From positions 1 to 56,426 of the forward strand of contig JBAZHV010000002.1 in NCBI GenBank assembly GCA_041652155.1: 56,426 bases of DNA, in the 5' to 3' direction. Both the position numbers and the translations under genes were made by a program. Source of the stretch: Minisyncoccota bacterium. GTDB taxonomy: Bacteria > Patescibacteriota > Minisyncoccia > Minisyncoccales > JAQTVQ01. A model generated the notes under the pieces. That model worked only from the letters and a program-made list of their open reading frames with translations, searched no databases and was not told the DNA's origin. Of this stretch, positions 1-13,101 are shown piece by piece (position 1 is the first letter of the stretch; each line of letters opens with the position of its first letter).

Positions 1-400
1 GTCTGCATTCTAGAATGCAGACTTTTAGGTGGCAGAGTATATGGAATAATGCAGAGTTTTTAGAAGCCCGATTCCCAAGCTGACAGGTCAAGGTTTTAGC
101 CTCATTCTACGGCGTTGTTTTGGCGGTAAGGCAAGGTTAGAGGTAGCACCTTGGCAAAACAACGCCTTGCCAGTGGTAAGGCCAAGCCCTTGCCCTTTTC
201 CAAGGTTAGCGGCTGCCGATCCAAACGGACGGATTTAGCCCAAAAACGGGGGTAAATTTACAGTCAAAAGTCTGCATTGACTCTGCATTCTAAGGAATGC
301 AGAGTTTTGGTAGCCAGAATATCATCAAAAACAGGCAAAATCTGGGCTAAAAAGTTGTCATTGAGTTGGCATTCACTTGGCATTCTATAAATGCCAACTT
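1..400. repeat. Cluster of (T/G)GCATTC half-sites forming three perfect hairpins (1-22, 281-304, 377-397). Two hairpins are preceded by an extra copy of the left arm (271-278, 366-374).
   Basis: Read directly: gtctgcattc-ta-gaatgcagac; ctctgcattc-taag-gaatgcagag followed by tttt; ttggcatt-ctata-aatgccaa. Confidence 0.7.
64..80 (+). repeat. Exact 17-mer aagcccgattcccaagc, copy 1. The partner is at 5092-5108.
   Basis: Identical 17 nt at both sites, followed by colinear shorter matches (ggctgccg; tttagYc...gggggtaRaat). Confidence 0.8.
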
Positions 401-462
401 CTAAAAGGTAGAAACTGACTATTTTCTGACAAAAATCACCTCAAAAACTGCTTTTTACGAAT

Positions 463-1530
463 TTAATCACAAACCACATAATGCAGATATTCCATTGTTT
501 TATCTGCGCTATAATCTCTATTCTCATTTTTATCCGCTTTAAATCTACTATGCGCTTTTGTAAAATATCCGTATTTACCGCGCATACTCATTATTTCCTT
601 TATATCGCTGGCCGTCATTAGACCTTCGTTATTGTAACTTAGAAAAATGTATTTAACTTTTGCGTTAGCTATAAGATTCTTAAAAGCGGTCTTAACTTTT
701 GTGCGAGAGCAATAAACAGACTTTTGGCTTTCGTAATTTCTTAACCCGGTTTTGCCATGAATTTTGGGATTATCATATTTAGCAACGGTTTCGAGCAAGT
801 GGTAGTTTGTCGCGTATTGTCGCTGGTTATAGGGCGGATCAAGATACAAAATATCCCCCTCTATTTTTTGGATAAGTTGGCCAATATCTTCGTTAAAGAC
901 TTTATGTTCCCTATCGTTGATTATTAATTCCGCCGGTTTTAAAACAATATTCTTTTGCGCAGTTTTCTTTAGCTTTTTCAAATAGGCTCCATAAACTGAA
1001 GCGGTATTGGCATATTTATCGATTGTTTCTATAAGCGTTGCAAGTAAAAAATAATACTCGTTGTTATTGATTGACTTATTATTTTCCCATTCTTCAATTT
1101 TCATTCTTATCGCGTCGCATTTTTTTCCATTCTCATCGGAGAAATATTGTCTTTCATATTCTTTGCCTTTTGTTCCTCCTACGCAGTAATTTTTATATAT
1201 AAAACCTTTGACACCTTTTAAACTAGAAAGATATTCGCATATCGCCGTTTTTCTATTTTCGATTAACACCTCTTTGAGTTGCGGTAAAATTTCTTCCAAT
1301 TTTTTAAATTTTAGCGGACGATGGTTTTCGATATACTGTTTATTCAAAACAAAACTATAGTATTGAATATCGTTAGCGATCACTTGATAACCCTTTTTCT
1401 TAAAGTGAGTTCCAACAATTCCAGTACCGGCAAATAAATCACAAAAAACACGGCAGTTTTTACCAGCGACTTTTTCTATCGATTCGTCTAAAAATTTTAA
1501 TAATGATAATTTACTGCCGATATAATTCAT
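463..1530 (-). CDS. Alpha-class (D12/Dam-type) N6-adenine DNA methyltransferase
   Basis: N-terminal NYIGSK motif. Motif I is FCDLFAGTGIVG and motif IV is LYLDPPYNQRQY downstream. The gene overlaps the AIPR gene by 4 nt. Confidence 0.85.
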   Translation of the reverse strand: MNYIGSKLSLLKFLDESIEKVAGKNCRVFCDLFAGTGIVGTHFKKKGYQVIANDIQYYSFVLNKQYIENHRPLKFKKLEEILPQLKEVLIENRKTAICEYLSSLKGVKGFIYKNYCVGGTKGKEYERQYFSDENGKKCDAIRMKIEEWENNKSINNNEYYFLLATLIETIDKYANTASVYGAYLKKLKKTAQKNIVLKPAELIINDREHKVFNEDIGQLIQKIEGDILYLDPPYNQRQYATNYHLLETVAKYDNPKIHGKTGLRNYESQKSVYCSRTKVKTAFKNLIANAKVKYIFLSYNNEGLMTASDIKEIMSMRGKYGYFTKAHSRFKADKNENRDYSADKTMEYLHYVVCD

Positions 1531-3257
1531 TTTTTCTTTAATATTTTTGTTATTTCATTGTCAATTTCTTGCCTTGCAAAAAAATGGCCAACGCTATTTA
1601 TTTCTTCCCGTTTTTTGTAATCAGCCAATAAATTAACCAATAACTTTGAAGAAGCAGCATAAGCCCTATCCAAATCTTTTACATCGCTTCTTTCTATAAT
1701 TCCTATAACATCCTCAAACGATTTTTTTTGCGATATAAATAATATTTCCCACATTATTCTTGCTATGTGAAAATATGCAAAATATTCAATTTCTTGCTTA
1801 TCATCCATTCTCTCAACTATAGGCCGTTTTTTAAGACAAAAATCGCTAATTAATGTAGCAACTAATATTTCGTTAAAATTTCTTATAAAAATTTTTTGAT
1901 AAAGAGGTTCCCCGAATAAAATATTCTCTTGTCTTTTATGGGCTATGCTCGGACTAACTAATGCTGTCGACAATACAGCTTGAGCTACAAAAAAATTATC
2001 AAAAATACCCTTGACGCTTGCCTTCTTTGGTCTTATTTCACCCCTTTGTTTAAGATAAAAATATTTCTTTCGTTTAAATTCATTTTGCAATGCTTTTTGC
2101 TCTGGATTATTAGAGACAAGATCTCTTGATTTAACTGCTAGTTGGCTATTGGTTGACTTCGCCACCTTTAAAAGCAAGTCATTGTCTTCTGTTTCATAAA
2201 TTTTTAACAAAATTTTGACTTCCTTCCTTAACTTTCCGTCCCTCAATGCCTTGTCCAACACTATAGCTGTTTGCTGCCCATTTATAATTTGAGGATTTGT
2301 TAATTTTAATATATGTTTTTCTGGATCCGGCAAACAATTTTCGCAAATAATGGTAATCCCATTATTTAAAAACCAAAATAAATCTGCTTCTTTATTCGAG
2401 GTGCAAGAATTAAGAATATCTTTATTATATTTTCTAAAACTCATCCAGCCACGAACATTTTTTTCAAAAAGGCAGTTACCATATGTTTCAATTAATTTTG
2501 CAATTTCGCTTCCCTTAACTGTCGCAAGGCGACCATTAGCGTTGATAATTTCTATTTCATTGCTAATTAAACGATCACCAACATATTTTAATTTTATTAT
2601 TTTACCCCTTAATGTTTCTTTTCTCGCGACATCAATGGAAAACAGGTCGTTAGCAGAAATTAGCTCTAAAGAAAACTTCGCTTTTGGATAAACCGTTTTA
2701 AAATATTTATCGAAGTAACTATAAATTTGCTTTACAGTTCTCAATATTTTTACCTCTTCTCTATTTTTTCCATTAAAAACGCAGTAGAAACATTTCACTT
2801 CTAAGACGTTGTCTTTGTCCTCTCTAATTTCGGAAATTTTATTAACAATTTTTTTATTTTCAAGTTGAAAATAATCTTTTTTAGGTTTAGCGAACAGATA
2901 GTCCAAACCGTTAAAAAATTCCTTTAAATCTTTTTCTGAAAAATCATCCTTTAACGATGATTTACAGTTAAAAATATTTATAAAAATTCCTTGTTCGTTT
3001 GACACTATATAAACCGAATCCACGCCATTATCATCATCACCGTCTGTAATATCCTCGTCCTGAATATCGGCATTACTAATTATAGAACTTGCCAAGTCAA
3101 CAAAAGCTACTCCCCTTTGAAGGTCTTTTTTTATTGAAGAATACTTATTGTCTATAATATCTTCAATCTGCGAATTTATGGCTTGTTTTTGTGGTGTATT
3201 AGTCTGCTTCATTTTTTTAGATCGAAATTCTATAGAAAGATTATTTTTCTTTTTCAT
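1527..3257 (-). CDS. AIPR-family (abortive infection phage resistance) protein
   Basis: 576 aa. The C-terminal region WFLNNGITIICENC...IINGQQT resembles the AIPR signature. It sits between an HTH gene and a MTase. Confidence 0.7.
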   Translation of the reverse strand: MKKKNNLSIEFRSKKMKQTNTPQKQAINSQIEDIIDNKYSSIKKDLQRGVAFVDLASSIISNADIQDEDITDGDDDNGVDSVYIVSNEQGIFINIFNCKSSLKDDFSEKDLKEFFNGLDYLFAKPKKDYFQLENKKIVNKISEIREDKDNVLEVKCFYCVFNGKNREEVKILRTVKQIYSYFDKYFKTVYPKAKFSLELISANDLFSIDVARKETLRGKIIKLKYVGDRLISNEIEIINANGRLATVKGSEIAKLIETYGNCLFEKNVRGWMSFRKYNKDILNSCTSNKEADLFWFLNNGITIICENCLPDPEKHILKLTNPQIINGQQTAIVLDKALRDGKLRKEVKILLKIYETEDNDLLLKVAKSTNSQLAVKSRDLVSNNPEQKALQNEFKRKKYFYLKQRGEIRPKKASVKGIFDNFFVAQAVLSTALVSPSIAHKRQENILFGEPLYQKIFIRNFNEILVATLISDFCLKKRPIVERMDDKQEIEYFAYFHIARIMWEILFISQKKSFEDVIGIIERSDVKDLDRAYAASSKLLVNLLADYKKREEINSVGHFFARQEIDNEITKILKKK

Positions 3258-3420
3258 CCTTCATTATTTCCAAGGGGTTTACGCCCAAAAACTTAGCGAG
3301 TTCTTCAACATTGCTTTTTACAGGTTTGAATCTATTTGACAAAATGTTCGATAATTGGTTTTTGGAAATACCGAGCATCTTTGCCAGCTCAGAAAAATTG
3401 TCTATTTTTCTTTTTGCCAT
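3241..3420 (-). CDS. Small XRE-type HTH regulator (controller-protein-like). The ORF track extends it to 3468 with a non-ATG start.
   Basis: MAKRKIDNFSELAKMLGISKNQLSNIL is a typical HTH_3 sequence. An ATG lies at 3420 with aaagag upstream. The 3' end overlaps the AIPR start by 17 nt. Confidence 0.7.
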   Translation of the reverse strand: MAKRKIDNFSELAKMLGISKNQLSNILSNRFKPVKSNVEELAKFLGVNPLEIMKDEKEK

Positions 3421-3504
3421 TATCTCTTTGATTTTATATTTGTCTATAATCAGCATAACATAATTCAAAGTATAAATACAAGTATTTAATTAACTTTGTA
3501 TAAT

Positions 3505-4173
3505 TTATTTCTTAACTATCTTGTTGAGTTCCTCTCGCCATTTATATGGGTTATGCCAAAAACATCCCTTACACCCGGCTTCTTCGTGCTTGTCAATTTT
3601 CTCGTCCCATTCTTCATCGCCCACATACCAAAAATAAACTCCGGGAAAACAACCTCTTTTACCAGTTTTGTAACATCTTTCGCAATACCTTGATTTTAAA
3701 AGATTATTACTCCTTGTCAAAAGAATAAATTTTCCTTTAATTTCTTCAGCTTTCATCTCCAATCCATTTTCAGGTTCGTTTTTGTTCCATCTTACCTGCG
3801 GAAACTTGTGATCGACTTCCAACTCTTTCGGCATCATCTTTCTTAAAAATAACGCCTCCTCAAAATTCAGCACTTCTTTGATTTTACTAATCAATTTTTG
3901 CGGCAAACCGGATCGCGTTTTTGTTTCTTCCGACACAACCAATGATTTTAATTTTCTATGGACTGTTTTATTACCACATTTTTTGCACAATATCGTTTTA
4001 TAAAAATTGTCCTTATCATCTTTGTCCAATTGTATCCCCATTTGTCGCCAAACTTGCCAAGTTTTCGCTTGGCCAGATTTTAATTCGCATTTTGTACAAT
4101 GCCATTTTAAATCACTTAAAATTTCAAAATCTTTATATTGTGTTGACCCTTCCTTAAATGGATTGTTTTTCAT
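3505..4173 (-). CDS. Putative HNH-type restriction endonuclease with Cys-rich zinc-ribbon modules
   Basis: HNH-like core EVDHKFPQVRWN...SNNLLKSRYCERC. CxxC pairs CTKC/CKKCGN and CKGC. The gene overlaps the upstream MTase by 20 nt. Confidence 0.6.
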   Translation of the reverse strand: MKNNPFKEGSTQYKDFEILSDLKWHCTKCELKSGQAKTWQVWRQMGIQLDKDDKDNFYKTILCKKCGNKTVHRKLKSLVVSEETKTRSGLPQKLISKIKEVLNFEEALFLRKMMPKELEVDHKFPQVRWNKNEPENGLEMKAEEIKGKFILLTRSNNLLKSRYCERCYKTGKRGCFPGVYFWYVGDEEWDEKIDKHEEAGCKGCFWHNPYKWREELNKIVKK

Positions 4174-4951
4174 TTTTGAATATTAAAATGTATTCGTGCT
4201 TAAAGATGTAATAATCGCTTGATAATGCCCTGTATTTCCAAATTGCCTCTTTGTTCTGCTTGGCGCGATTGCCTTCCATGTTTTTGATTATAATGCTTTT
4301 TAATGTTAAACCCAATTTTTGAAGCTCATTCATACAATAAAATCCTAATGGAATCCATTGACCTTTTGTATATTTATCGCCGATTACAACGGCTAAATAT
4401 CTGTTTCTATCCAATATGCTGATTACATTTTTGGAAACTTGCGAAAACTTTTCTAAAAATTCCTTAAGCGATTGGCAATTAGATAAGTCTTCCGAATGAT
4501 CGCTAAATTTTATAATATCCGCATAGGGCGGATGTAAAATCGCAAATTGAACGCTTTCTCTTTGATATTTTTTCAGCGAACTAACAATATTGTCAAATGT
4601 CATTTTATTTGCGCTATCTCCGGCAACCAACTCAAAAAAATTATTTTTACTATCAATTTTTCCCTTAATATAATTTATAAGTTCCGGCTGTATGTCCACC
4701 CCGACAAAATTTCTGTTTAACGATTCTGCCTCGAATGCCGTTGTCCCGCTGCCAACAAAAGGATCAAGCACAACATCGCCGTTTCGGGTATATCTTGAAA
4801 TTAATTGTCGAGGTATTTGCGGTACAAAATTGCCGTGATAAAAACCACTATGCTTTCCCGATTTATCTCTTTCGGGAATGATCCAAAGACTATCTGTCCA
4901 AACGCCCAGATTTCTCCAATCGTTTAAATTTAAATCGTTGAAACTTGGCAT
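4154..4951 (-). CDS. DNA methyltransferase with motif I before motif IV (gamma-like order)
   Basis: VLDPFVGSGTTAFEA (AdoMet motif I) is followed about 85 aa later by ILHPPYADII (motif IV variant). Confidence 0.8.
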   Translation of the reverse strand: MPSFNDLNLNDWRNLGVWTDSLWIIPERDKSGKHSGFYHGNFVPQIPRQLISRYTRNGDVVLDPFVGSGTTAFEAESLNRNFVGVDIQPELINYIKGKIDSKNNFFELVAGDSANKMTFDNIVSSLKKYQRESVQFAILHPPYADIIKFSDHSEDLSNCQSLKEFLEKFSQVSKNVISILDRNRYLAVVIGDKYTKGQWIPLGFYCMNELQKLGLTLKSIIIKNMEGNRAKQNKEAIWKYRALSSDYYIFKHEYILIFKNEKQSI

Positions 4952-5091
4952 AATTGAAAGGTTAACTACTCTCTATAATCTACCTTTTTCAACACTATTT
5001 TTCAAATTCCAAACGAAACCACAGGCTTCGTTTTATTTATATTTTAAATTCTCCCCTTCCCCCCATCTTTTCGGCTAAAATGCGTTGTGCC

Positions 5092-5108
5092 AAGCCCGAT
5101 TCCCAAGC
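5092..5108 (+). repeat. Exact 17-mer aagcccgattcccaagc, copy 2
   Basis: Identical to 64-80 and lies in a 520-nt non-coding region. Confidence 0.8.
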
Positions 5109-5323
5109 CGGCTGCCGGTCTGCGAGCGAAGCTCTGGTTTGGTACTCCAAAACAGGGCGAAGTGAGTTTAGTCGGGGGTAGAATGTTGCGCCTTTTGCCC
5201 AAAAAAGATACAACAAAAATACCAGACAGAAATCGGGGCAGTTTAACCGTTTTTAACCGTTCTCTTCAAGGAAGAAAGTCCGAACTTTTTCATACAAACA
5301 GCTCATCGAAGAAAACGCCAATT

Positions 5324-5382
5324 TTTTGGCCGATAATGCCCACGGTTTTTGAAGCGAAATAAACGGTTTTTGGCCGACAATG
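5324..5382 (+). repeat. Direct repeat ttttggccgaYaatgc (5324-5339 and 5367-5382) upstream of the recombinase gene
   Basis: Read directly. 15 of 16 nt are identical and the copies are 43 nt apart. Confidence 0.5.
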
Positions 5383-5474
5383 CGGAAGTCCGAAAGCGTT
5401 TTATCGAAAACGAAAGCCGATTTTTTTCCTCCAAATTTTCACAAATCCAAATTATTTTTATCCTTAAAAGGAAT

Positions 5475-6935
5475 ATGAAATATTTTTTATACGCTCGAAA
5501 ATCCACGGACGAAGAAGAACGCCAAGTTTTGAGCATTGAAGCCCAGATAACGGAACTGAAAGAATTTGCTTTGAAAGAAGGACTGGAAATCGCCGATGAA
5601 TTTATTGAATCGAAAACCGCCAAGGTTCCGGGTCGTCCTATATTTAACCAGATGATCGCCAAAATAGAAGCTGGTGGGTCTTTTGGCATTTTAAGCTGGC
5701 ACCCGGACAGGCTGGCGCGCAATTCGGTTGATGGCGGTAAAATCATTTATCTCGTGGACACTGGCAAGATCGGCGGCTTAAAATTCCTCACCTTTTGGTT
5801 TGACGCAACCCCGCAAAGAAAGTTTATGTTAAATATCGCTTTCGGCCAGTCAAAATATTACATTGATAATTTGAGCGAGAATATCAAACGCGGATTGCGC
5901 CAAAAATTACGAAACGGCGATTATCCGGCCTACGCCCCTATCGGCTATCTAAACGAGTTGCGCCATCATACCATCGTCAAAGACACACAGCGCGCCGAAG
6001 CGGTCAAGAAAGTCTTTGAAGCTTATGCCACGGGAAAATATACTTTGGAAGATTTGCAAAAACTTTCTTTTTCCATTGGCTTTGCCGGACAAAGAAAAGG
6101 AAAAGCCATCGCCGTTTCCAAAATCCAAACAATGCTGAAAAATCCGTTTTACTACGGCCTGTTTCATTTCAAAGGCGAAATATACCAAGGCAATCACGAG
6201 CCAATCATTTCCAAACAACTTTTTGAAAAATGCCAGCGCGTAATGCAGGAACGCGGCAAACCGCAAGCAAATAGTTTGAAACATTACGCTTTCCGCGGTG
6301 TATTCAAATGCGGCGAGTGCGGCCGCCAGATTACCGCCGAAACACGGGTCAAACCTTCCGGCAAATCATACACATATTACCGATGTACCAAGAAAGACCG
6401 CGTTTGCCGCCAGAAATATATCGGCGAAAAAAATCTATCGGATCAGTTGAATAAACTTTTTCAAAAAGTTGCTTTAAGCGCGGAATGGAAAAATAACTTT
6501 ATCAAACGATGGGAAAAAGATCACAAGGAATTTTCCACCACCGCCAACGATTCCGCCCAAAATTTAAAAACGGAATTAAAAGCTGTTAGCGCAAAACTAA
6601 ACCGGCTTTTGGACGCTTACATAGATCAAACGATTGGCCGCGAAGAATACGCCGCCAAAAAGCAAAAACTGCTCAACCGCAAGGTTGAAATTAACGAGGA
6701 GCTGGAAAATTTTGGGCGGAGGGGAAATGTTCGGCTCGGACTCTTCAAAGACTGGATTTTAGAGGCATTTCAAGCCAATTCCATCGCAGAAAGTGAAAAT
6801 TTGGAGGGAAAACGGGACTTCCTGAAAAAGATCGGCTCGGACTACCTTATTACCGGCCAAAAACCCATTATTTCATTGCAAAAACCGTGGTCGCTGTCGT
6901 TCCAAAAGAGCGGATTTCTCTCTATGAGCGGGTGA
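5475..6935 (+). CDS. Large serine recombinase (resolvase catalytic domain, recombinase domain and zinc ribbon)
   Basis: MKYFLYARKSTDEEERQVLSIEAQ carries the catalytic Ser motif. Later features are CGECGRQITAE...YYRC and a coiled-coil tail. The ATG at 5475 is preceded by aaagga. The ORF-track start at 5349 adds a non-homologous extension. Confidence 0.85.
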   Translation: MKYFLYARKSTDEEERQVLSIEAQITELKEFALKEGLEIADEFIESKTAKVPGRPIFNQMIAKIEAGGSFGILSWHPDRLARNSVDGGKIIYLVDTGKIGGLKFLTFWFDATPQRKFMLNIAFGQSKYYIDNLSENIKRGLRQKLRNGDYPAYAPIGYLNELRHHTIVKDTQRAEAVKKVFEAYATGKYTLEDLQKLSFSIGFAGQRKGKAIAVSKIQTMLKNPFYYGLFHFKGEIYQGNHEPIISKQLFEKCQRVMQERGKPQANSLKHYAFRGVFKCGECGRQITAETRVKPSGKSYTYYRCTKKDRVCRQKYIGEKNLSDQLNKLFQKVALSAEWKNNFIKRWEKDHKEFSTTANDSAQNLKTELKAVSAKLNRLLDAYIDQTIGREEYAAKKQKLLNRKVEINEELENFGRRGNVRLGLFKDWILEAFQANSIAESENLEGKRDFLKKIGSDYLITGQKPIISLQKPWSLSFQKSGFLSMSG

Positions 6936-6998
6936 AGGGAGTCGGACCCTCGTCTCAACCTTGGGAAGGTTACATAATAGCCGTTATACGACACCCGC
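6928..6998 (-). tRNA. tRNA-Gly (anticodon CCC), 71 nt, no encoded CCA
   Basis: Folded by hand. Acceptor stem GCGGGTG/CACCCGC. Anticodon arm TAACC-TTCCCAA-GGTTG. T arm GAGGG-TCCGACT-CCCTT. The discriminator is U. The D stem is weak, and the T loop has C where the conserved T55 is expected. Confidence 0.7.
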
Positions 6999-7113
6999 GT
7001 TGGTCCGCCGAAGCGCTTCGCGCGAAGGCGACCCTACGCTCACCTTAGCTCGGAGCTAAGGCGAGCTACGGCGGGGCGATGCCCGCCTCGCCGATATCTC
7101 TTTTGCTTTATTT

Positions 7114-7533
7114 TTAATTTCCTGATTTTGCGCTGAATTGGTTCTTTATCCAATTTATGATGTTGCCGAACAATCCTTTGTTTTGTTCTTGTGTTCCTTG
7201 GTCTTGGCCCTGGGTCGATTCGTCCCTTTTGATCATCAATATTTGCTCCCCCGGCTTTTGCAAATTAAGTTCTTCACGGGCCACTTTTTCCAAAGAAGCC
7301 GGGCTGGACGCCTCGGTCAATAAAGAGTTAAGCCGCTTTTCCTTTTCGGAATAGCTGTTCGACGTCTGCTTTACATCTGCCAGGTTTTTTAAAAGCTTTT
7401 GGCGTTCGGTATTCAGCTTCAGGTTGGTATCTATGAAATAGATCGTCAAAGGTACAAAAAAAATAGCCAGGAGAACGATCTTTTTGCGAAAGGTCCAAAA
7501 CCTCTTTCTATTTTTTTTCTTTTTTGCTATCAT
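7114..7533 (-). CDS. ftsB: FtsB/DivIC-type septum formation initiator
   Basis: N-terminal TM helix, coiled coil, and the motif LEKVAREELNLQKPGEQIL. Confidence 0.7.
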   Translation of the reverse strand: MIAKKKKNRKRFWTFRKKIVLLAIFFVPLTIYFIDTNLKLNTERQKLLKNLADVKQTSNSYSEKEKRLNSLLTEASSPASLEKVAREELNLQKPGEQILMIKRDESTQGQDQGTQEQNKGLFGNIINWIKNQFSAKSGN

Positions 7534-12672: not shown

Positions 12673-12683
12673 AATTTACAAAA

Positions 12684-13101
12684 ATGCCAAGCAGGTAATA
12701 AGCCGAATTCTGTATCACCACGCCGTAGCTTCAGCGAAGGCGGGTATTACCCCGATATCGTTAAAGCGGCGGGTACTAGCGATCATCAATCTTGGCCTGG
12801 AATTACTCCCAGGCTCCAGCGAGCTACTTTTCTTTGAACGCTTGCGCGTTCAAGTTTGCTCTTGCATCCGGGCAAGGATTTTGCCGTTGCACCCCCCATA
12901 TCGCTATGGGAATATCCTCGAGAAATTCCCGAGGCTGCCGAGCCTTGCGGCTAAGCACGTCACTGTTCGCACCTCTATCCTCGCGGACGAAGGGGGTTAC
13001 CCTCTGCCTGTAATCCGGCCCCGAAGGATCGGAATGGATGTTCGGACTTTCCTCCCCGTTCCCCTTGCGGAAAACGGAGCGATCGCCTGCCTGCTTGGCT
13101 T
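12684..13101 (-). ncRNA. rnpB: RNase P RNA, bacterial type A
   Basis: On the minus strand, GGAGGAAAGTCCGAAC (13055-13040) is the P4 5' strand and ACAGAATTCGGCTTA (12713-12699) is the P4 3' strand. P1 pairs gccaagcagg (13099-13090) with cctgcttggc (12695-12686). A GGGTGCAACGGCAAA element is also present. Confidence 0.9.

Follow-up and report, generated by a model that had tools for sequence, protein, structure and literature searches.

What does an abortive-infection protein do when its gene sits directly in front of a DNA methyltransferase gene? The question is raised by positions 463–4951 (minus strand) of a 56,426-nt stretch of DNA from a Minisyncoccota bacterium (contig JBAZHV010000002.1), the whole of which we call the window. 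Here a small helix-turn-helix (HTH) gene, a gene of the AIPR/AbiU1 family and a gene for a Dam-type adenine methyltransferase (MTase) follow one another, and a first-pass annotation had read the three as a restriction-modification (R-M) operon with AIPR in the nuclease slot. Comparison with related loci leads us to favour, with slightly better than even confidence, another reading. The cassette would be a horizontally acquired type II R-M frame with two MTases, into which an HTH and an AIPR gene have been inserted, and AIPR would serve as an accessory second-line effector rather than as the nuclease that belongs to the adjacent MTase.

AIPR/AbiU1 proteins are common in defence islands, and their association with R-M is itself already known. 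It has been published since 2008 that AIPR is commonly encoded in R-M operons (PMC2292703; PMC3506569), and one such case comes from Prevotella (PMC5608340). The first-pass annotation remarked that the activity of these proteins is not well established; our literature search bears this out, as it returned no experimental work on AIPR biochemistry.

A five-gene restriction-modification cassette

Profile searches confirmed all three protein identities. The HTH protein matches Pfam HTH_26 (1.4e-11) and HTH_3 (3.6e-9), the middle protein matches AIPR (PF10592, 3.1e-36, 126.1 bits against a cutoff of 25, residues 264–535 of the long open reading frame (ORF)), and the last one matches MethyltransfD12 (1.6e-52). 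The R-M setting also held up, as did the controller-like position of the HTH gene. The number of genes did not: immediately upstream of the HTH gene, and in the same direction, lie two further genes that had been overlooked, making five genes rather than three. These encode an N6_N4-class MTase (M1, 4951..4154) and a restriction endonuclease (REase) candidate (R, 4173..3505); the D12-class MTase at the other end of the cassette is termed M2. Placing AIPR in the nuclease slot is thus hard to maintain, since the same conserved cassette carries an REase candidate of its own two genes upstream of AIPR.

M1 matches Pfam N6_N4_Mtase (5.7e-29), and both MTases match PADLOC MTase_II (M1, 9.9e-98; M2, 2.5e-113). 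R matches PADLOC REase_II (PDLC03537, 5.2e-39) and, weakly and below the cutoff, Pfam ICEA (IceA/NlaIII; 7.2e-4). With its Cys4 and HNH-like motifs, R is a candidate for a bona fide type II REase of the HNH, NlaIII/IceA-like kind, and in six other cassettes its counterpart is 73–85% identical. Two MTases and one REase are therefore encoded in one direction, and the unit is kept in more than 12 cassettes, some with AIPR and some lacking it, as befits a two-MTase type II R-M system. CATG occurs in the host part of the window at only 0.46 times the expected frequency (92 observed versus 200 expected, z = –7.7), and no other palindromic 4-mer is as depleted. This depletion fits an NlaIII/IceA-like CATG endonuclease, and CATG is probably the site that R cuts.

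Between positions 7000 and 56426, AATC/GATT is the most under-represented 4-mer (357 observed versus 649 expected, z = –11.5), ahead of CATG; its scarcity could come from codon usage or from another restriction pressure. M1 itself carries the invariant motif pair FxGxG ... HPPY, with HPPY present in 15 of the 15 M1-type MTases checked (the window and L001–L189). HPPY, in place of the usual D/N/S-PPY, is unusual for a match to the N6_N4_Mtase family. A plasmid search with R gave two distant matches only, and the plasmid relatives of M2 (44% identity) lie in different operons with two Dam MTases.

The methyltransferase pair occurs with and without AIPR

To place the cassette among its relatives, we gathered the neighbourhoods of AIPR homologues from public contigs and limited the cassette comparison to AIPR relatives of at least 30% identity. 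The order M1-R-HTH-AIPR-M2 (A-type) is shared by at least six further independent cassettes (L001, L083, L161, L166/167, L170/171, L180/181), so the five-gene arrangement is not due to chance. In a second variant (B-type; L163–165, L177–179, L182–183), the order is M1-299aa-AIPR-M2. Across the distinct contexts of this clade, AIPR lies inside an R-M operon in ∼16 of 17 and next to M2 in ∼12 of 17, and the AIPR and M2 genes overlap as ATGA in most AIPR cassettes, as they do in the window.

Taken by itself, this geometry suits the model of the first-pass annotation, in which HTH-AIPR-M2 is a self-contained controller-restriction-modification operon, AIPR is the endonuclease, M2 protects the host from it, and M1-R is a separate neighbour. 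The HTH gene directly upstream of AIPR, the conserved element before it and the likeness of the AIPR N-terminal domain (N-domain) to PD-(D/E)xK nucleases (see below) can be counted on the same side. We nevertheless regard this model as improbable, chiefly on account of cassettes in which the MTases occur without AIPR.

In L184–L194 we found three-gene cassettes of the form M1-X-M2, where X is an REase-like protein of 389 or 286 aa. M1 from two of these cassettes is 72–74% identical to that of the window, as compared to 67–78% in nine AIPR cassettes, and M2 is 74–78% identical, as compared to 69–74% with AIPR present. M1 and M2 of AIPR-less cassettes thus fall in the same range of identity as those of AIPR-containing ones. 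It follows that M1-REase-M2 is a self-standing two-MTase R-M frame and that M2 does not exist to protect against AIPR. The first-pass annotation had also taken the tight AIPR-MTase coupling as a sign of pairing. The 4-nt overlap is real (ATGA at 1527–1530, the AIPR stop overlapping the M2 start), but where AIPR is absent, M2 follows the REase gene after a gap of only 2–3 nt, so tight coupling of M2 is a property of the operon and not a mark of an AIPR-MTase pair.

AIPR, for its part, is also found apart from M2. One cassette has the order M(379 aa)-298aa-77aa-AIPR (L002), two are M1-like-(∼280–300 aa)-AIPR (L081, L082), and another is M1-like-AIPR followed by a separate N6_N4 MTase and an REase_II gene (L168/169); all of these lack a D12 MTase. 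One AIPR relative of 32% identity is surrounded by metabolic genes, with no MTase nearby (L172/173). An obligate AIPR-M2 pairing therefore fails in both directions, with M2 found without AIPR (L184–L194) and AIPR found without M2 (L002, L081, L082, L168, L172); M1 and M2 always travel together, AIPR present or not. In the wider AIPR family, a DNA MTase is among the operonic neighbours in only ∼1/10 of 80 species-representative loci. These data argue against the specific toxin-immunity relationship that had been suggested for AIPR and its MTase.

The REase position of the M1...M2 frame is itself variable. Against MTases that remain 67–88% identical, at least three unrelated proteins occupy it: the 222-aa HNH protein, a 278–300-aa family with the motif GVD..(F/I)D(Q/L/I)K, and a 389-aa protein with ID...ELK (among L163, L177, L182, L002, L081, L082, L184 and L189). 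Searches with the middle proteins of 299, 298, 300 and 278 aa returned no PADLOC family and no significant Pfam match (two chance-level matches, E 0.02–0.03). The GVD...(F/I)D(Q/L/I)K motif, seen by eye (GVD...FDQK in the 299-aa protein), suggests a PD-(D/E)xK REase.

The 3′ end of the frame also gathers defence genes. Right after M2 lie a 766-aa protein with HARE-HTH and DndB domains in L161 (7756–10056), a 245-aa HARE-HTH protein with a weakly PD-(D/E)xK-like C-terminus in L163 (7755–8492), and a PD-Lambda-5_A-like protein plus a second D12 MTase in L177 (7760–9981). The closest complete five-gene cassette in species-representative genomes is L001 (CAYXNZ010000010.1), from a metagenome-assembled genome labelled Gammaproteobacteria. 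The other close relatives are all Patescibacteria-type, so L001 represents either an inter-phylum transfer or a mis-binned contig.

AIPR is the variable and optional part

We computed identity matrices for M1, M2, R and AIPR across ten cassettes. Pairwise identities are 67–88% for M1, 69–87% for M2 and 68–85% for the HNH REase, versus 28–84% for AIPR. The AIPR proteins divide into at least five deeply separated lineages, whose grouping disagrees with that of the frames. The closest frame to that of the window is L170 (HTH 96%, R 85%, M1 78%), yet its AIPR is only 35–36% identical; L083 has an A-type frame with the AIPR lineage of the B-type L163 and L177 (77–78%). Divergence extends through all three AIPR domains, of which the C-terminal one has diverged most and the central core least.

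AIPRs of 28–40% identity beside M2s of ∼70–87% are hard to square with a matched sequence specificity, whereas the HNH REase behaves as a matched partner of the MTases. The pattern fits an exchange of alleles in a slot, together with the behaviour of an arms-race component, better than it would fit a nuclease matched to conserved MTases. The comparative data thus contradict the notion that AIPR has taken the place of the restriction enzyme and forms a pair with the Dam-type MTase.

We also looked for AIPR relatives in viral contigs and in metagenomes. A scan of viral contigs gave distant relatives only, with ≤34% identity over short segments and ≤27% over most of the protein, and hence no sign that the present clade is carried by phages. 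Among the matches listed in a metagenome scan, most were likewise distant.

Domain architecture of AIPR

The window protein matches the PADLOC AbiU model nearly over its full length (PDLC02357, 2.3e-49; protein 33–564 versus profile 8–525 of 537), and Pfam AIPR matches all 65 homologues that we aligned to read residue conservation. An AlphaFold (AF2) model was obtained with high confidence (predicted local distance difference test, 92.6 for full-length AIPR and 96.0 for the N-domain, residues 1–200). The N-domain is alpha/beta and contains the motif DGxDxxGID...I(N/Q)xK, in which D65 is invariant and K84 is ∼90% conserved among the 65 homologues. When the N-domain was compared to the PDB with Foldseek, the best matches were nucleases, namely HamA of Hachiman (E = 6e-3) and FokI (TM score 0.50). 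The full-length model gave weak matches only (HamA, 0.06; FokI, 0.11), and Mrr_cat matches were weak and confined to 5 of the 65 homologues (best, 3.5e-4). The first-pass annotation had looked to structure prediction for a nuclease fold; what emerges is a weak likeness to HamA and FokI, and on these models nuclease activity of the N-domain is plausible.

The central domain carries the invariant motifs FWFLNNGIT, QI(V/I)NGQQT and ATNSQ...RDLxSN. In the BFVD library of viral structures, its fold matches DndB-like, GmrSD_N/DUF262 and ParB/Srx proteins (E 1e-3 to 1e-1). These matches, along with the literature, link the AIPR core to ParB and DndB; a ParB-related core agrees with Makarova et al. 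2013 (PMC3632139). The link is at the level of fold: the Pfam models GmrSD_N, DUF1524 and DndB do not match AIPR, sequence searches against PDB chains gave nothing meaningful (full AIPR at E ≤ 1; N-domain and central-domain profiles at E ≤ 10), and hhalign of the AIPR profile with the DndB-domain protein of L161 found no relation to the core. The C-terminal domain is helical and variable. PMC3506569 assigns AIPR to HEPN; for the window protein we set this aside, as the 65-sequence alignment contains no conserved Rx4-6H motif; elsewhere HEPN is assigned to AbiU2, not AbiU1 (PMC3710099).

This architecture allows for a version of AIPR that does answer to methylation. AIPR could be a second methylation-aware nuclease, for which the M1 and M2 marks denote self and unmarked DNA is attacked, much as SspE or DndFGH work with phosphorothioate. 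Such a nuclease would provide the R-M frame with a second kind of cleavage chemistry. The near-constant embedding of clade AIPRs in R-M operons points this way, as do co-translation with M2, the resemblance of the core to DndB and GmrSD_N, which work with DNA modification, and the resemblance of the N-domain to the nucleases Mrr, HamA and FokI. However, most members of the AIPR family have no MTase neighbour, the relative at 32% identity stands alone, the MTases are conserved where AIPR is highly divergent, and direct support for reading of methylation by AIPR is lacking. We consider this alternative unlikely.

A DndB-like core might equally mark AIPR as a DNA-binding regulator rather than as an effector. 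Such a regulator would adjust how strongly the R-M genes are expressed or how active their products are, as when the system is becoming established in a new host. DndB is a negative regulator in Dnd systems (PMC3506569; PMC3632139), the N-domain lysine is lost in some AIPRs, and the B-type cassettes, lacking the HTH gene, leave room for another regulator. Set against this are the invariance of D65 and near-invariance of K84, the full-length match to a defence model, a deep allelic diversity and swapping that would suit an arms-race component better than a housekeeping regulator, and M1-X-M2 frames that function without AIPR. On this evidence a purely regulatory AIPR seems very improbable.

The HTH gene and its upstream element

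The HTH protein is 66–96% identical across six cassettes, and its gene is preceded by a conserved element. In 7 of 7 A-type cassettes, an invariant 19-nt sequence, GTTAAT.AAATACTTGTAT, stands before the HTH gene (3476–3494 in the window), and an alignment of the seven R-HTH spacers shows GTTAA..AAA...TTGTAT to be invariant. In the window, 3476–3501 forms an imperfect palindrome that is followed at once by a very short leader; among the seven, only this copy and that of L170 show clear dyad symmetry. The element looks like an autoregulated promoter, which would fit a controller-like role of the HTH protein for the HTH-AIPR-M2 part. A promoter and terminator scan did no better on the real sequence than on shuffled sequence, and Rfam found no RNA element over 1–7300 besides a tRNA-Gly.

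Controller (C) protein operons (C.PvuII, C.AhdI, C.Esp1396I) share with the cassette a small XRE HTH gene directly upstream of a nuclease-like gene, and a partly palindromic conserved element just before the HTH start with a very short leader. They differ in that the gene after the HTH is here AIPR, with the REase upstream of the HTH. Moreover, B-type cassettes lack the HTH gene or have it at the operon head (L163). The HTH protein has no detectable sequence similarity to solved C-proteins, and we rejected its identification with a known one, since a PDB sequence search gave generic XRE proteins only (MBF1, CylR2, SinR; E ≥ 0.006).

Comparison with known systems

Two-MTase systems of the DpnII, LlaDCHI and MboI type are type II R-M systems that combine two adenine MTases (D12 and N6_N4) with one endonuclease. 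Here too, D12 and N6_N4 MTases flank one REase, and the AIPR-less L184 and L189 have exactly three genes. The window differs in that its REase is HNH and NlaIII/IceA-like, with CATG rather than GATC as the suspected site, and in that M1 has HPPY. The REase slot of the present frame holds at least three unrelated families, and the window copy carries the HTH-AIPR insert.

With respect to the AbiU1/AIPR family, the cassette conforms in its full-length profile match (AbiU, 2.3e-49; AIPR, 126 bits), in its embedding in an R-M operon, as in Iyer et al. 2008 and Makarova et al. 2012/2013, and in joining a ParB-superfamily core to another, nuclease-like domain, a fusion that those authors had predicted. 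It departs from the described cases in its occurrence in genomes of the candidate-phyla-radiation type, in the fixed site between the REase and the second MTase of a conserved frame, and in the HTH gene before AIPR in one variant. The specific architecture seems to be undescribed, namely a conserved frame of Patescibacteria-type genomes in which AIPR occupies one fixed site, after the REase gene and ahead of the second MTase gene, and in which its alleles are swapped.

GmrSD, SspE and DndB resemble AIPR in that its central domain is structurally like GmrSD_N/DUF262 and DndB-like proteins and is fused to a nuclease-like domain, and NGQQT of AIPR sits where DGQQR or DGQHR stands in those families. 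In AIPR the nuclease-like domain is N-terminal and PD-(D/E)xK-like, whereas GmrSD has a C-terminal DUF1524 HNH domain; unlike in Dnd and Ssp systems, no dnd or ssp genes accompany the cassette. Membership in the GmrSD/DUF262 type IV group was rejected, as there is no Pfam GmrSD_N or DUF1524 match and the similarity is confined to the fold of the central domain. MZA (MzaABCDE), in which MzaE is an AIPR protein, was also considered. Matches to MzaE are weak and partial (residues 244–390; PADLOC, 1.5e-7; NCBIfam, 37.5 bits), far from the NCBIfam cutoff of 1050, and no MutL/MORC, Z1 or other Mza genes lie nearby, so membership was rejected.

Gene layout, start sites and flanks

Features of the cassette are collected in Table 1. 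The first-pass annotation worked from the longest minus-strand ORFs (3468..3241 for HTH, 3257..1527 for AIPR and 1530..463 for M2) and described a 17-nt overlap of HTH and AIPR. This overlap proves to be an artefact of using the longest ORFs as genes. In its database entry the window AIPR has 561 aa, and all close homologues have 543–565 aa with N-termini that align with Met16, which places the AIPR start at ATG 3212. The HTH gene probably starts at ATG 3456 (71 aa), as in the 70–71-aa gene calls of L170 and L180. With these homologue-supported starts, a spacer of 28 nt (3213–3240) separates the two genes.

Table 1. Positions of cassette features in the window
Feature	Position	Strand	Description
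M1	4154..4951	-	N6_N4-class DNA MTase, 265 aa; first cassette gene
R	3505..4173	-	222-aa type II REase candidate, HNH/zinc-ribbon, NlaIII/IceA-like; 20-nt overlap with M1
R-HTH intergenic element ATACAAAGTTAATTAAATACTTGTAT	3476..3501	-	Candidate promoter/operator of the HTH-AIPR-M2 part
HTH	3241..3456	-	XRE/Cro-C1 type, 71 aa from ATG 3456; ORF from TTG 3468
AIPR/AbiU1-family protein	1527..3212	-	561 aa from ATG 3212; longest ORF from 3257
AIPR N-domain	3212..2613	-	
AIPR ParB/DndB-like core	~2519..1953	-	
AIPR helical C-domain	~1952..1530	-	
M2	463..1530	-	D12-class N6-adenine DNA MTase, 355 aa, DPPY; last cassette gene
Left 17-nt direct repeat AAGCCCGATTCCCAAGC	64..80	.	Perfect copy flanking the cassette
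Right 17-nt direct repeat AAGCCCGATTCCCAAGC	5092..5108	.	Perfect copy; spacing 5028 nt

The cassette has several signs of foreign origin. Its G+C content between the repeats is 32%, compared to 47% in the rest of the window, and comparison of its two flanks yields no significant match other than the perfect 17-nt direct repeat. Adjoining the cassette is a large serine recombinase gene (5349–6935, plus strand; Resolvase, Recombinase and Zn_ribbon_recom), the 3′ end of which overlaps a tRNA-Gly(CCC) gene (6926–6998, minus strand). Low G+C, the repeats and the adjoining recombinase and tRNA genes together suggest a horizontally acquired island. The repeat may be an insertion scar or an att-like site, and the recombinase gene may either form a separate mobile unit or encode the integrase of the island. 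A 93-nt imperfect inverted repeat (71% complementary; 5301–5393 and 6837–6929) brackets the recombinase gene.

The non-coding stretch left of the cassette contains related short palindromes that form hairpins, at 1–22, 281–304 and 367–392; among them are GTCTGCATTCTAGAATGCAGAC, CTCTGCATTCTAAGGAATGCAGAG and a GGCATTC...AATGCC element. Farther into the window, at 12683–13098 (minus strand), lies a class A bacterial RNase P RNA, which at 110 bits narrowly exceeds the gathering score of 100.

A working model for AIPR in the cassette

In our preferred reading, M1, R and M2 would form a type II R-M frame of a kind that is also found by itself. The HTH and AIPR genes would have been inserted between R and M2 in the same direction, with AIPR translationally coupled to M2. 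The AIPR protein would combine an Mrr/HamA/FokI-like N-domain with a ParB/DndB/GmrSD_N-like core (NGQQT) and a variable helical C-domain. In normal cells it is expected to be kept inactive. A phage cue, possibly failed restriction, would switch it on, and the activated protein would then attack nucleic acid, with an outcome of the abortive-infection type. We favour an AIPR that is inactive until such a cue because most AIPR genes have no MTase partner and one relative stands alone. Makarova et al. 2012 (PMC3506569) put forward the general idea of a second line of defence behind restriction.

Several points weigh against the effector reading. The near-constant R-M placement of AIPR in this clade could mean a functional dependence on methylation and not mere co-location. 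An HTH gene and a conserved upstream element before AIPR, with an ATGA-coupled MTase after it, are also the look of a controller-restriction-modification operon. Support for a nuclease fold is weak, with no PDB match at E ≤ 1e-3, and the clade motif is D...NCK, not D...(D/E)xK. The lysine equivalent to K84 is replaced in 3 of the 14 clade members in which this position was also read (L182, T; L002, T; L168, N), and the ParB-like motifs are intact in these three despite the replacement. The N-domain may thus be inactive in some AIPR lineages; loss of a predicted catalytic lysine is also awkward for an AIPR that acts as the restriction endonuclease of M2. The CATG specificity of R comes only from a weak family similarity and from CATG depletion, and the literature holds no experiment on the window AIPR or any close relative.

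A more specific proposal, which we offer tentatively and as possible but doubtful, is that in the M1-REase-M2 frame, widespread in Patescibacteria-type genomes, the site between REase and M2 is a slot for exchangeable and deeply diverged AIPR alleles that guard the R-M system. Such alleles would sense anti-restriction factors of phages, or a failure of restriction, via their variable domains and fire an Mrr-like nuclease under the control of a ParB/DndB-like switch.

What the cassette family offers is a natural comparison, as one and the same frame is found both with AIPR and lacking it, and in combination with various AIPR alleles and endonucleases. This makes three roles of AIPR testable, namely those of a methylation-protected nuclease, an abortive-infection back-up and a regulator. 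If the guard-slot proposal is true, the slot would be a concrete example, open to test, of the link between innate immunity and abortive infection that has long been proposed.

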